From an uncultured Chloroflexia bacterium (GTDB taxonomy: Bacteria > Chloroflexota > Limnocylindria > Limnocylindrales > CSP1-4), in assembly GCA_963823925.1 (NCBI GenBank), contig CAWGNI010000007.1, positions 219,333-283,332 of the forward strand: a stretch of 64,000 bases of DNA, read 5' to 3'. The position numbers were made by a program, and so were the translations under genes. The notes under the pieces are model-generated. The model worked only from the letters and a program-made list of their open reading frames with translations. It did not search any database and was not told the origin of the DNA. Positions 58,979-64,000 of this stretch are shown piece after piece (position 1 is the first letter of the stretch; each line of letters opens with the position of its first letter).

Positions 58979-59055
58979 CGGGGCGTGGCGCAGCTTGGTA
59001 GCGCGCATCGTTCGGGACGATGAGGTCGGAGGTTCAAATCCTCTCGCCCCGACCA
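58979..59055 (+). tRNA. tRNA-Pro (anticodon CGG)
   Basis: Hand-folded 77-nt cloverleaf. Acceptor CGGGGCG/CGCCCCG; D GCGC/GCGC; anticodon stem CATCG/CGATG with loop TT-CGG-GA; T stem GGAGG/CCTCT with TTCAAAT; encoded CCA. Confidence 0.95.
59039..59055 (+). repeat. Direct repeat copy 1 (tRNA-Pro 3' end; attL-like)
   Basis: TCCTCTCGCCCCGACCA is identical to 61329-61345. Confidence 0.7.
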
Positions 59056-59294
59056 GAACATCCGTTCTACGGATTCGTGCTCACGCGCGGCTCAAACGGA
59101 CCTTCAGCGGCCGTCCGATGTCGCACCGACGTACCTCACTGTCCCGTTCGGGCCAAACAGAGCTCGGCTATGGTGCATTGGCTCATCCGCCTTGGTGCCT
59201 TTGCGAGATTCAGATTCCGGTCACGGTCTTGAGTGTGTTCGAGGCGAACCCGGGCTTGGCGGGCTGCTCGAGGTCATCAAGCAGTGGGCGACGC

Positions 59295-59732
59295 CTATGG
59301 GCCAGGTTGATGGTGGGGACCGCCTTCCAGGTGCATACCCAGAACTTCAACGCGGCAGATGTCGTCCATCAGGATGAGAAGCAAGTCAGTCTCGATCCGC
59401 TCTTGAATCGCGAACGTGCCCTCGCAGTCTTGCCCGTTAACTTCGATCCATTTCGCGAGTGGGAGAGGGAGGGTCGACCAGTCGACGACGACCTCATCGC
59501 CCTGCGCGAACTCGGCGGTGCGTAGCGAAGGTCCGCCGGCCTCGTCGATGCGGATGGTCAAGGCATATGGTGCCAGCCGGGGATCTGATGTGAGGTGGAA
59601 GCTACCGGGCAGCGGCTCACCGACCAAAGTTGGCTCGGGAGACACGTTGGGTTGGACCATGCATCCGACTAGTGCGAGCGCGACGCCGGCTAGCCAGAGG
59701 ATTGAGCGGACCGCGCGTCGAGGCGAATTCAC
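59295..59732 (-). CDS. Lipoprotein, unknown function
   Basis: Lipobox LAGVALALVGC. It is the last gene of the islet operon, 4 nt after the upstream stop. The C-terminus may be affected by a frame change. Confidence 0.55.
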   Translation of the reverse strand: MNSPRRAVRSILWLAGVALALVGCMVQPNVSPEPTLVGEPLPGSFHLTSDPRLAPYALTIRIDEAGGPSLRTAEFAQGDEVVVDWSTLPLPLAKWIEVNGQDCEGTFAIQERIETDLLLILMDDICRVEVLGMHLEGGPHHQPGP

Positions 59733-59736
59733 ACGC

Positions 59737-60381
59737 CTATCCGTCCGCGGCCACGCACCCCGGCGTGGGCGTCGACGACGGGATGTCGAAGGTAGTGTCC
59801 AGGATCCGTATGACTACGCAGGCTCGCTGCGCAGTCAACCAGCTCACCCAGCGACTGTCGGACTCCCGGGTTGTGAGCCGTTCCCGCAACACCAGAACGG
59901 CATCCGAGAACGCCAGGACGTGGAGGCTTGGGTCGGTGGCGTACGCAGCTTCGAGCAGATCGTCTGGAATCTGCACCGGTCCCACAACCTCTGCCTTCAC
60001 AAGCCGGAACAGGACGAACATCCGAACTCGCTCGCGAAAGGCGGCCTCCTCGCCACCCTTCGGCAGCGAACGCGCGATGAGGTCGGTCTCACTCATTCCC
60101 CCAACCTCGCGAGCGACTTCATCATCGGAGACCTCGATGCCTCTACGCTGTGCCTCGCGCTGGACCAGGACCTGGTTGACCAGCGAGAGCAGGACGTCCT
60201 CCTCAGACACGCGAACCGTGCCATCAGGGGAGGTGAACACCTGGGCGTACTGGTCGTACGTGGCACGCGAGATCACGACCCCGTCGACAATCGCCACCCC
60301 GTCTGGTTTCGCCGCGAAGGCGACGAGAACCAGGACCGTTGCGAGGCAAGCTAGGATCGCGATCGTCGCGACCCGCCTCAA
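59737..60381 (-). CDS. SurA N-terminal-domain-like chaperone, membrane anchored (no PPIase domain)
   Basis: The TTG at 60381 overlaps the protease stop (TTGA). The TM helix is VATIAILACLATVLVLVAF. VAIVDGVVISRATYDQY...VLLSLVNQVLVQREAQRRGIEVSDDEVAREV follows the SurA_N pattern. Confidence 0.6.
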   Translation of the reverse strand: MRRVATIAILACLATVLVLVAFAAKPDGVAIVDGVVISRATYDQYAQVFTSPDGTVRVSEEDVLLSLVNQVLVQREAQRRGIEVSDDEVAREVGGMSETDLIARSLPKGGEEAAFRERVRMFVLFRLVKAEVVGPVQIPDDLLEAAYATDPSLHVLAFSDAVLVLRERLTTRESDSRWVSWLTAQRACVVIRILDTTFDIPSSTPTPGCVAADG

Positions 60382-61129
60382 TCGAACTTGTCCGCGTACA
60401 GCTCGAACATCGGGTGATCCCCGAGCCCGACGGGCACGACCTCGCACCAGAAATTCGGATACGAGTACTGGTTCTCCATCACATCATTTGTGTGCGAGTT
60501 GTTCGGATCGGGATATCGGTCGGGGTCGTTGAAGAGGTGGCTCACCTCGTGTTGCGTCGTGACCCAGCGGTTGTATGAGCTTGAGCTCCAATTCACCTCG
60601 GCCTCGTCCCCGTTGAGTTCGGCGCAACCGGAGTAATTGGTAGACGAGTTCTTCGCGAAGCCGATCAGGATGTCCGCGGTACCGGGGCTTAGGTCGGCCT
60701 TCAGGTCGTTCAGGAGGCCACAGGCGTTGACGCCCGAGTCCGGGCTCGAATCCCAGTTTGCGGTGCTGTACGTGACTAGGTCGAAGCCGAATTCGGTGTT
60801 CGTCGCGTTGTCGGCGGACTCGATCGCATTACCGGCGACGGTGAACGAGCTTGAACCGTAGTAGGAGCGCCATTCCTCGTCCGCTGCGAGCTTGACGTAG
60901 ATGGTGTGCGTGACGACGAGGGTCGTGATGTCGCCGGTGAGCTCATCGGTCGGCGCCTGATCGTTGCGGGCGACAAGGCGCGCGAGCTCAACGCCTGTCG
61001 GTGGCGCCGGATGAGGGCCGGTCGTAAGGGGGGTTCAGGCTTTGCCGCCGCCGCCGGGCTCGCGGGGAGCATCATGGCTGCCGTGAGCGCCATCCCGATA
61101 ATGAGAGCGCGAGTAGGGGACCGCTTCAT
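60378..61129 (-). pseudogene. Secreted HExxH zinc metalloprotease (reprolysin-like arrangement), frame broken at a G7/C7 tract
   Basis: AGGAGG RBS, ATG 61129, signal peptide MKRSPTRALIIGMALTAAMMLPASPAAAA. After the homopolymer at 61028-61034 the protein continues in another frame without a stop: ...ADILIGFAKNSSTNYSGCAELNG...NRWVTTQHEVSHLFNDPDRY...*. The length of 752 nt equals 3n-1. Confidence 0.7.
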
Positions 61130-62277: not shown

Positions 62278-62837
62278 GCGGTGTCCGTCGCGCCGGGGCC
62301 GAGCTCGGCCAGGACCTCGTCGACCTCCCGTCTCCGGAGTAGGCCGCGCTCAGCCGCTTCGCGAGCCGCAGCGATGAGTCGATCTCGCATCACGACCCCG
62401 CGCGCATCCCGGATGGCGCGCGCCAGGGTGGTCGTCGGGATGCCCTCATAGGTGGTTAGGTCGTCAGGTCGATCGTGCCGTGGCACGACCTCGATGGTCT
62501 CGGGCAAGGTCCGGCGAGCTCGCTTTGGCGTCCCGATTCGGATGCGCGCCGGATTGACGTCGGCGAGACCGTGGAGCGCCAAGACCGCATCCCCAACGAG
62601 ATGTGCGCCGTCGCCCACAGCAAGGACAGCCTCCATGAACTCGTCGCGACCGGTCACCGGCACGTCGTCGAAACGGTAGAGGCCGTGTCCGTGCCGGGTT
62701 AGCCCGCCGCGCGCGGCGAGCTGGCGGACCGCCCAGGCAGGCACATCGAGGTCGTCCGCGTCACCGGTGGTTACGTATCCGTATTGATCGAGGGCACGCT
62801 CGTGCAGTTGCCGTCGGTAGGTTGTTGCTAGTGCCAT
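62274..62837 (-). CDS. AbiEi-family antitoxin / transcriptional regulator (type IV TA)
   Basis: N-terminal wHTH-like LHERALDQYGYVTTGDADDLDVPAWAVRQLAARGGLTRHGHGLYRF plus a C-terminal domain. It lies directly upstream of the DUF1814 gene. Confidence 0.8.
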   Translation of the reverse strand: MALATTYRRQLHERALDQYGYVTTGDADDLDVPAWAVRQLAARGGLTRHGHGLYRFDDVPVTGRDEFMEAVLAVGDGAHLVGDAVLALHGLADVNPARIRIGTPKRARRTLPETIEVVPRHDRPDDLTTYEGIPTTTLARAIRDARGVVMRDRLIAAAREAAERGLLRRREVDEVLAELGPGATDTA

Positions 62838-62870
62838 CCCGTGAGTTCCCTTGCCAATACCGTAGTGAAA

Positions 62871-62899
62871 ACGCTACGCTATTGACAACCTTGTGTCAA
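62871..62899 (-). promoter_or_regulatory. abiE promoter with palindromic -35 (operator candidate)
   Basis: Minus strand: TTGACA (62899-62894), 17 nt, TAGCGT (62876-62871). The -35 is one arm of the palindrome TTGACAaccttgTGTCAA (62882-62899). Confidence 0.55.
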
Positions 62900-63801
62900 G
62901 AGAGTTCCCATGCACCCTCGCAGCGGCCACGCGGTCGTCCAGGAAAGCCATGAGATCCCGCTACGCAGCCTTCCCCGCGCACCGCGGGCAATCTCTTCGA
63001 GCCGCACCGCAAGGCGAGGAATGGTCGCCTCGAGGATCGATCTCGGCCTTCGGACTGTCCTGTCATCGTAGCGGAGGAGCCAAGGGTCGTGCGAGACACC
63101 GATGCCTATCTTGAGCAGCCGAATGCACCAATTTCGCTGGTCATTGGCCCCGTCGCAACAAAGTCGCGCCTGTTCGATCTCAGCCTTGAGGCCGGCACCA
63201 TCTGCAGCGGCAAGCGATTGCCAGGAAATTCCAGATGGATATTGACCCAGAAGGGTGTCCAACGCCGCAAGGGCGCGAGGAGGGTCGGAGTTGCGATTGT
63301 CGTCCCATTCGAAGGCCCACGTGCAAAACCAGGCGTTGCCAGCTGCGTGGGCTCGTTGGACTTGGCCCCGAGGCAGAGGCGGAATCGGCTGAGGATCGAG
63401 CGTTGCGGTTCCTCGGACGGCCCGCCGCGCTTAGCCTCGTGATCGGCCAGGATGGTGAGGATGTAACCTGCGCCGGTCCTGGACGTCGCCCGGATCCGCC
63501 ATCTGTTGGTCGCGAGTTCGCGGGCGACCGGCTCGACATCGCGGACGAACGTGGTCACGTCCTCGCGCAGCACGTCCAGTCGCTTGAAGTCCCACCGGTC
63601 GATCGCGCCTCCGCCCATGCTGTCGCGGGATCGCGCGACCTCGGCCTGCATGCCCTCCAGGAGTAGCTCGGTGGCGAACGACGTCAGCGCCAGGCACATC
63701 TCGTCGCTGATCCGATTGAGCCAGCCGAAAGGGGTGGCGCCTCCATACATCTCCTGGTGTTCGTCGGAGTCAGTCAAGAAGTCGCCCTCGCGGCCGGCCA
63801 A
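62879..63801 (-). pseudogene. Hypothetical protein (about 307 aa if joined), one frame change near 63325-63345
   Basis: ORF 63106..63801 (...ILADHEAKRGGPSEEPQRSIL...EPTQLATPG) continues as WFCTWAFEWDDNRNSDPPRALAALDTLLGQYPSGISW... in the frame of ORF 62879..63262. The TTG start is uncertain. No family was recognised. Confidence 0.5.
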
Positions 63802-64000
63802 TCACCACTGCGCTCGGAGTCGCTCGTCGTCATCGACGCGGAGGCGCAGCCCGGAACAGCGGCGATGAGGCGCGACAGAGAATCGTGCTCAACCCGACCC
63901 GAGCCCGTAACCCAACTCGCTACGCTCTATACGTGCGGGCGCCGTCTGGACCGGACTCCCGGCCCGAGGATTCGCTTCGGGCGACGTTCATGGTGCGACA

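Follow-up and report, generated by a model that had tools for sequence, protein, structure and literature searches.

A tRNA-Pro(CGG) gene of an uncultured Chloroflexia bacterium is probably followed by two stacked, integrase-less leftovers of mobile DNA

The stretch analysed here, called the window, is the full 64,000-nt segment of contig CAWGNI010000007.1 from an uncultured Chloroflexia bacterium, and all coordinates are window positions unless a comparison contig or locus, designated by an L-number, is named. Towards its end lies a gene for tRNA-Pro(CGG), whose last 17 nt, TCCTCTCGCCCCGACCA, occur exactly twice in the window, both times on the + strand, at 59039-59055 and again at 61329-61345. 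The 5 kb that follow this gene are probably two stacked, integrase-less leftovers of mobile DNA inserted at the tRNA 3' end. The proximal remnant would be a 2.27-kb protease cassette flanked by attachment (att) sites and resembling a cis-mobilizable element (CIME), and the distal one an older AbiE piece truncated by deletion, the order of events being a reconstruction. The locus combines the repeat, a foreign composition, a break in homology at the tRNA, the absence of a recombinase, a truncated pseudogene and a return to core composition. The insertion is delimited by three features:

58979..59055, + strand, tRNA-Pro(CGG) gene with encoded CCA, the integration target (ARAGORN; Rfam tRNA model, 63.3 bits)
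59039..59055, + strand, attL core, the last 17 nt of the tRNA (T-stem 3' strand, acceptor-stem 3' strand and CCA), exact repeat
61329..61345, + strand, attR-like core, second exact copy of the 17-mer, which divides the two segments and is kept in the related-strain contig L149

Up to two mismatches being allowed, 0.07 matches to the 17-mer are expected by chance, and two matches appeared in none of 100 shuffles. The 17-mer is also the sole exact repeat of at least 17 nt in the 58-64 kb region, the internal duplication of the lipoprotein gene beside the tRNA aside. The identity between the two copies is exactly 17 nt. In the 60 nt 5' of copy 2 the similarity to the tRNA body stays at chance level (local alignment against shuffled or random window sequence, p ~0.4-0.55), which rules out copy 2 as a longer, degenerate copy of the tRNA. 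Neither ARAGORN nor Rfam places copy 2 within a tRNA-like RNA, and Rfam together with promoter and terminator scans of 58.8-64 kb returned the tRNA and nothing further. It could be argued that the second 17-mer has no relation to integration, either resembling the tRNA end by chance or being all that survives of a duplicated tRNA gene. Duplication does occur at this locus, as shown by L021, a Limnocylindria-labelled metagenome-assembled genome with a degenerate full-length tRNA-Pro(CGG) duplicate 3.1 kb downstream of the real gene (4935-5015, 8084-8160). However, the exact 17-mer lies far outside what chance would give, 17 bases would not stay perfect in a decaying duplicate whose flanks have only random similarity, and the repeat coincides with both the break in composition and the end of synteny; this explanation is very unlikely.

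The change in composition begins directly at the tRNA 3' end. Between the two copies (59056-61328) the GC content is 0.626, against a core mean of 0.688 (z = -3.6), which is under every core window of equal size, and the tetranucleotide distance reaches z = +8.6. Beyond the second copy (61346-64000) the GC content is 0.659 (z = -1.8), and the tetranucleotide distance, at z = +4.5, exceeds that of every core window. The sequence past the window is provided by L149 (contig_30759, ENA assembly ERZ25039549), which was found through the frameshifted protease open reading frame (ORF) of the proximal segment. The reverse complement of L149 matches window positions 59041-64000 at 98.05% identity and then runs 7.3 kb further, and in its sequence GC and tetranucleotide usage regain core values near window position 64,000, some 5.0 kb away from the tRNA. 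The other end of this contig falls 15 nt inside the tRNA 3' end (12288-12302). The window holds a second proline tRNA, tRNA-Pro(TGG) at 45666-45742, within a core stretch of lower GC (44000-47000, 0.64-0.66).

Orthologous loci were found via the lipoprotein gene beside the tRNA. This Lipoprotein_15 gene (58000-58659) carries an internal 360-bp tandem duplication, consisting of two 300-nt copies that are 84% identical. The arrangement of lipoprotein gene and tRNA-Pro(CGG) is kept in four lineages at 70-82% nucleotide identity, namely L009, L003/L069 (one species), L159 and the more distant L021, and the 3' half of the tRNA is identical in L003, L009, L069 and L159. For L009, L003/L069 and L159 the alignment with the window stops at 59055-59059, and the DNA that follows differs in each lineage; for L021 the nucleotide alignment consists of the tRNA alone. 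In L069/L003 and in L009 a gene for a large serine recombinase (LSR; L069 1327-2892, L009 ~8300-9500) converges on the tRNA and overlaps its last 22 nt, with a RusA gene as its neighbour in L069 and a Replic_Relax gene in L009. L159, which is 81% identical, has a direct copy of the tRNA end (CCTCTCGCCCCGACCAGA, 16-18 nt) 4.06 kb downstream (5718-5735; tRNA 9792-9868), and the segment enclosed by it contains beta-lactamase-family, beta-propeller and extracytoplasmic function (ECF) sigma genes, no integrase, and has a core-like composition. In L021 a VIT1 gene lies between the tRNA copies, in a segment without integrase, and a BglII-type restriction-modification pair lies beyond. Because different DNA follows it in each lineage, the tRNA-Pro(CGG) end is a recurrent insertion point. 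The initial annotation, made from the letters of the window, had noticed that the 3' 17 nt of the tRNA recur at 61329-61345, had read the two copies as attL and attR, and had reported a change in composition after the tRNA, suggesting that it be measured as windowed GC and k-mer deviation. The recurrence is an exact repeat beyond chance, the windowed measurement bears out the change, and the attL/attR reading is backed both by the homology break at the tRNA 3' end and by the behaviour of the 17-mer as a viral attachment core, described below. This supports an interpretation of the repeat as a footprint of attL/attR type, left by site-specific insertion at the tRNA 3' end.

All real genes after the tRNA lie on the minus strand: those for the Reprolysin_5 protease, a SurA_N-like protein and a small protein in the proximal segment, and AbiEii/AbiEi and a distal ORF after the second copy. 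The proximal segment contains the following features:

59056..59294, no strand, non-coding left end of the proximal segment, which begins right after CCA; 100% identical in L149, no LSR gene remnant
59295..59732, - strand, small secreted or lipoprotein-like protein, cassette gene 3; no Pfam match; 53-69% identical to gene 3 in L150, L152, L153, L155, L160 and L161
59737..60447, - strand, SurA N-terminal-domain-like protein, cassette gene 2; Pfam SurA_N_3 2.4e-7; 44-58% identical to gene 2 elsewhere
60378..61130, - strand, secreted M12-like (Reprolysin_5) metalloprotease, cassette gene 1; three-frame translation; Pfam Reprolysin_5
61131..61328, no strand, non-coding stretch upstream of the protease operon, forming the right end of the proximal segment and closing with the 6 nt CTTGTC

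The protease, SurA-like and small-protein genes constitute a conserved three-gene unit, which is found at 44-77% identity in six other contigs among unrelated housekeeping neighbours (ruvABC, sulfate assimilation, P-type ATPase); these six contigs have no tRNA at the corresponding position and no integrase. The true start of the SurA-like gene is probably internal to its ORF. In the protease gene the signal peptide and the mature part are encoded in different frames, one base being missing in a G-run at 61028-61033, and the addition of one base to this run gives a product of 250 aa that covers 100% of the 251-aa homologues. The protease product of L149 (P0018) uses the same shifted frame. At the G-run L149 has AGGGGG and the window GGGGGG, of equal length, and both are out of frame. 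Either the frameshift is real and common to the two, or the homopolymer was misread systematically in both assemblies; apart from this shift, every gene of the window cassette is in one frame.

The distal segment and its boundary comprise five features:

61419..62277, - strand, AbiEii nucleotidyltransferase toxin, whose TTG start overlaps the AbiEi stop; Pfam AbiEii 1.2e-14
62274..62837, - strand, AbiEi antitoxin and transcriptional regulator; Pfam AbiEi_4; PADLOC AbiEi 4.5e-57
63380..63852, - strand, 5'-truncated pseudogene of a rare uncharacterised protein family, with an in-frame TGA at 63802-63804
63853..63987, no strand, deletion scar that forms the islet's right edge, from the truncated pseudogene to the ATP-binding cassette (ABC) gene; no att copy; core composition beyond (L149)
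63988..64000, - strand, 3' end of an ABC-transporter ATPase gene, with its stop at 63988-63990 (TCA on the + strand) and core-like composition; L149 gene 6671-7360, Pfam ABC_tran 1e-31

The adjacent AbiEi-AbiEii pair, with its overlapping stop and start and its strong profile matches, resembles the AbiE type IV toxin-antitoxin/abortive-infection system, and the intact 285-aa AbiEii of L149 matches the PADLOC AbiEii profile at 2.7e-94. It departs from such a system in that the toxin gene of the window has a 1-nt insertion compared with the related strain, within an error-prone assembly: the extra base, at 62270 and directly past the TTG start, shifts the frame after codon 2 in the window only. 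This base could be a real toxin-inactivating mutation or a sequencing error. A search for the island genes in the viral loci and in 148 loci that are related or paralogous found none of them.

The gene at the far end of the distal segment is the one that shows how this segment terminates. Its ORF (63106-63801) loses homology beyond about residue 130-157. A search of 1.84 billion representatives gave 9 matches, to homologues of 320-550 aa that are aligned only from an internal residue on, and by tblastn five homologues (373-550 aa) match the window from 63852 down to ~63270-63470, starting at homologue residue 96-299. The in-frame TGA interrupts this homology where the homologues have Trp-Trp, and the same stop is present in L149. 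The full-length homologues have no Pfam match, and a metagenome scan with the 231-aa ORF returned no relatives. From the start of the homology to the ABC gene there are only 135 bp, and the distal gene is therefore a 5'-truncated pseudogene. Since this truncated gene abuts the ABC gene, the second unit ends in a deletion scar at ~63.85-63.99 kb, without an att site.

Indels elsewhere in these genes have to be read with caution, as the assembly clearly has indel errors of the kind typical of long-read-only data. Glutamine synthetase III, a core gene, is split over three frames (53960-55174, 54912-56093, 55975-56247), and the gene for a pyridoxal phosphate (PLP)-dependent enzyme, also core (51197-53908), runs on into a ResB-like gene. 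A reading of the protease, AbiEii and distal-ORF frameshifts as general evidence of decay was considered and rejected; because core genes are frameshifted as well, indels in the island genes are uninformative on this point. In the proximal segment the alignment of the window with L149 has 22 gaps, and the frames broken by them are those of L149, at a poorly polished contig end, and not those of the window. Only the distal gene gives real evidence of decay, through its in-frame stop and its truncated 5' end.

No ORF of 59056-64000, on either strand, matches PF00589, PF00239 or PF07508, and no remnant of an LSR gene was found in the window or in L149 by tblastn, even at E = 50. The initial annotation had stated that the first 2.27-kb segment lacks an integrase, which agrees with the absence of a recombinase domain from all its ORFs on both strands. 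It had further proposed that the region may be a tandem array, with a remnant as its first unit and a second unit, from 61346 on, that runs beyond the window, where an integrase may lie. In full, this model would make the second unit a larger, possibly intact element that has an integrase and a third att copy past the window end. Tandem arrays have been described at tRNA genes (PMC3218068, PMC5704250), the distal segment is atypical in composition and carries AbiE, a typical mobile-element pair, and L149 has a third, partial copy of the tRNA end 8 kb past copy 2. This copy (1877-1949) has 13 nt exact at 1937-1949, followed through the tRNA 3' half by a degenerate match; however, it is inverted, not direct, and lies beside insertion sequence (IS) copies. 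It may be the trace of an inversion or of an older boundary. The 7.3 kb of L149 past position 64000 encode the ABC ATPase, a 286-aa ORF, two small ORFs, two IS481-family copies, a GNAT protein and three further genes; by gene list and Pfam they include no tyrosine or serine recombinase, only IS481-type DDE transposases, and they contain no further direct copy of the 17-mer. The proposal is largely refuted there, the composition is core-like from ~64,000, and the segment's last gene is cut short next to the ABC gene. The annotation was partly right about two stacked units, but a live distal unit beyond the window is very unlikely, and the downstream extension that it had suggested as a check yielded, over the 7.3 kb of L149, neither an integrase nor a further direct repeat copy. 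Its gene calls stand as regards the common minus strand, the secreted protease operon and AbiE; the protease is split by a frameshift, the final 13 nt of the window are part of the ABC ATPase gene, and what had been called an unknown gene is the truncated pseudogene.

The window itself contains an IS481-family element at 29600-30797, with a 344-aa rve/helix-turn-helix (HTH) transposase gene at 29742-30776. The two IS481 copies of L149 are arranged in tandem 3.7 kb past the window end and are 99.4-99.9% identical to this element; such near-identical copies indicate that the IS has been recently active.

The 17-mer is present in at least 120 IMG/VR stretches, with 121 matched sites, 46 of them within tRNA-Pro genes and 75 outside any called tRNA. 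A 37.7-kb viral contig (L174 and L259, IMGVR_UViG_3300028585_000047) has the 17-mer near both ends, like a textbook provirus, and the core is therefore in active use as an att site. The ORFs next to stand-alone sites are tyrosine integrases in 14 of 20 cases and serine recombinases in 2 of 20. Nearly all viral sites retain T-loop/T-stem sequence upstream of the core. Only about six share no more than the 17-mer with the tRNA, which is also the case in the window, and the LSR family of L069 accounts for at least three of them. Copy 2 of the window extends 0 nt past the core, as do L234/L286, L267, L272 and L284-L289. Among the viral homologues of the L069 LSR (72-89% identity), the tRNA-end core overlaps the LSR stop codon in all eight; two of the eight are junctions with the tRNA itself and six are attP sites with a conserved non-tRNA arm, and the attP of the family shares 13-17 nt with the tRNA. 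The LSR ORF reads antisense through the tRNA-Pro 3'-end core and stops at the T-loop position, with the terminal residues …GRGERI, in L069, L009, L282-L289, L234, L254, L267 and L273.

The window resembles these LSR sites in part. At copy 2, CTTGTC together with the core and the following T agrees exactly, over 24 nt, with an attP-like site in viral contig L267, and the upstream flank agrees with L267 at 14 of 24 positions, against at most 11 for other sites. An nhmmer profile of the eight LSR P arms gave no hit at 61269-61328, no LSR gene reads into the tRNA-proximal core in the window, and the sequence directly after CCA, GAACATCC…, differs from the LSR-side TAACCAGCAG…. The intact elements with the same core, that is, the LSR prophages (L069, L282-L289) and the tyrosine-integrase viruses, share no sequence with the segment beyond the 24-nt match of L267. 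Viral contigs were also scanned for an integrated LSR prophage with both junctions, by two P-arm patterns that were both set aside, the first being unspecific (0/120 relevant) and the second returning only four known attP sites. The recombinase behind the insertion in the window was somewhat more probably a tyrosine integrase, and an LSR of the family found at this tRNA in relatives is a possible, less probable candidate. Integration of serine recombinases into tRNA genes has been described as rare (PMC3218068), and what serine integrases have in common with their targets is normally no more than a short core (PMC10654092). The LSR prophages at tRNA-Pro(CGG) in L069, L009 and L282-L289 are of this rare kind, as are the AICEs (integrative and conjugative elements of actinomycetes) of Mycobacterium in tRNA-Leu and phage phiRSM1 in tRNA-Ser (PMC3218068). 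This likeness concerns the relatives and the viral contigs and not the window, and the LSR ORF here reads through the att core and ends in it.

An alternative origin of the proximal segment follows from these sites. The 2.27-kb segment could be a functional miniature element that never had a recombinase of its own and was moved in trans by one specific for the tRNA-Pro 3' end, most plausibly of the LSR family, so that the flank of the tRNA would be a hot spot collecting cassettes. Small integrase-less segments of 2.3, 3.1 and 4.1 kb, with different cargo and delimited on one side by the tRNA and on the other by a copy of the tRNA 3' end, are found in three lineages (the window with L149, L021 and L159, respectively). 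Both att cores are perfectly kept and the foreign DNA begins exactly at the core. The preservation of the cores and the recurrence in three lineages fit such cassettes better than random decay. The attP identity of the LSR family is limited to the same 13-17 nt, where most other sites extend into the T-loop, and the 24-nt match to L267 points in the same direction, as does the end of the L149 contig inside the tRNA 3' end, which is expected at a junction that varies in the population. On the other hand, the LSR P-arm profile misses the copy 2 flank, the tRNA-side flank is unlike the LSR-side arm, and there is no LSR in the 64-kb window or in L149. The same cassette is found elsewhere in ordinary chromosomal contexts without att sites, the L159 segment is core-like in composition, and no circular or empty-site form was observed. 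The circle junction predicted for the proximal segment is …GGCTTGTC-TCCTCTCGCCCCGACCA-GAACATCC…, and loss of this segment would join the tRNA to TTTGTTCTATTTC…. Taken together, mobilisation in trans is an unlikely origin for the segment.

In staphylococci, the staphylococcal cassette chromosome (SCC) islands, SCCmec and the ccr-less pseudo-SCC elements, combine an LSR acting at the 3' end of a conserved gene, direct repeats of 15-18 nt and recombinase-less units stacked at one site. A cassette moved in trans would parallel these pseudo-SCC elements or the cassettes of integrons. The locus shares with SCCmec and pseudo-SCC the conserved-gene 3' end as target, the short repeats and the stacked recombinase-less units, a likeness that holds only if its recombinase was an LSR; it differs in that the target is a tRNA and not rlmH, the LSR families are unrelated, and the role of an LSR in the window is that of a candidate. 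In its widest form, the repeat would be the footprint of an LSR family targeting the tRNA-Pro(CGG) 3' end, and the tRNA flank an SCC-like collecting site at which, throughout a clade of uncultured soil bacteria of high GC, recombinase-less, att-bounded cassettes would be inserted and exchanged in trans, a proposal that is doubtful. The family would then share a 13-17-nt core with its target, which is unusual for LSRs, and have the LSR stop codon inside attP, while the cassettes would be the protease operon in the window, VIT1 in L021, and the beta-lactamase-like and ECF sigma genes in L159.

The preferred explanation, two stacked leftovers, proposes that the distal piece (61346 to ~63852), with AbiE and the now broken gene, first lay directly after the tRNA as the remnant of an older acquisition. 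A deletion into its last gene would have removed its far end and whatever lay beyond. Later, another element would have recombined with the tRNA 3' end, supplying a new 17-nt copy to the tRNA and pushing the old one (61329-61345) 2.27 kb downstream. Of this later element only the cargo, the three-gene operon, would remain, bracketed by both att cores. Without a recombinase, the segment would be fixed in place unless a recombinase of matching specificity acted in trans, which is the definition of a CIME. The window and L149 both retain the two 17-nt cores intact, and the segment consists of the three-gene cassette only. The CIME concept and its accretion model have been described (PMC5704250), and the ICESt1-related CIMEs of Streptococcus thermophilus undergo tandem accretion at att sites (PMC5704250, citing Pavlovic 2004 and Bellanger 2011). 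Like them, the proximal segment has attL/attR flanks, has no integration or transfer genes, lies at the 3' end of a conserved gene and is stacked by another decayed element. It differs from them in its tRNA-Pro target, in its high-GC soil bacterium and in having no related intact parent with the same cargo, and it is CIME-like by sequence alone.

Several points weigh against this explanation. No empty site, in which the tRNA would be followed by tttgttctatttc… or by the ABC gene, was found among the four island-free lineages; these have other DNA after the tRNA, none of them with a matching distal flank, and the close relative L149 has the island. The relatives are only ~80% identical, and the synteny break could in part be ordinary rearrangement. 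Random deletion would rarely remove an integrase and yet keep both att cores, with the foreign DNA starting exactly at the core, which favours a small recombinase-less element. The third, partial and inverted copy of the tRNA end in L149 is not explained by the model, and the extension past 64000 is known from this related strain and not from the source contig. Finally, no intact element combining the protease cassette with this att site was found, and derivation by decay is therefore something that we infer.

The actinomycete integrative element pSAM2 integrates in a tRNA-Pro gene. With it and with the classic tRNA-associated genomic islands and islets (PMC2440964), the islet shares the insertion at a tRNA 3' end, the direct repeat of that end, the atypical composition and the accessory cargo; it differs from them in lacking integrase, excisionase, replication and transfer genes within the window, in its 17-nt repeat and in its very small size (2.3 kb, 5 kb in total). 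The islet is thus of a routine, already known kind, a tRNA gene that collects mobile DNA and then strands it. Two practical lessons may be drawn, namely that assembly frameshifts are not evidence of decay and that the island ends at the window end. For this uncultured lineage, the secreted-protease operon and the AbiE defence pair are recent accessory genes at the level of strains. The most interesting by-product is the tRNA-Pro-targeting LSR family of the relatives and viral contigs, which could matter more: with a defined 17-nt tRNA core, a family of serine integrases would offer recombinase engineering an attB/attP pair that is ready-made and well delimited.

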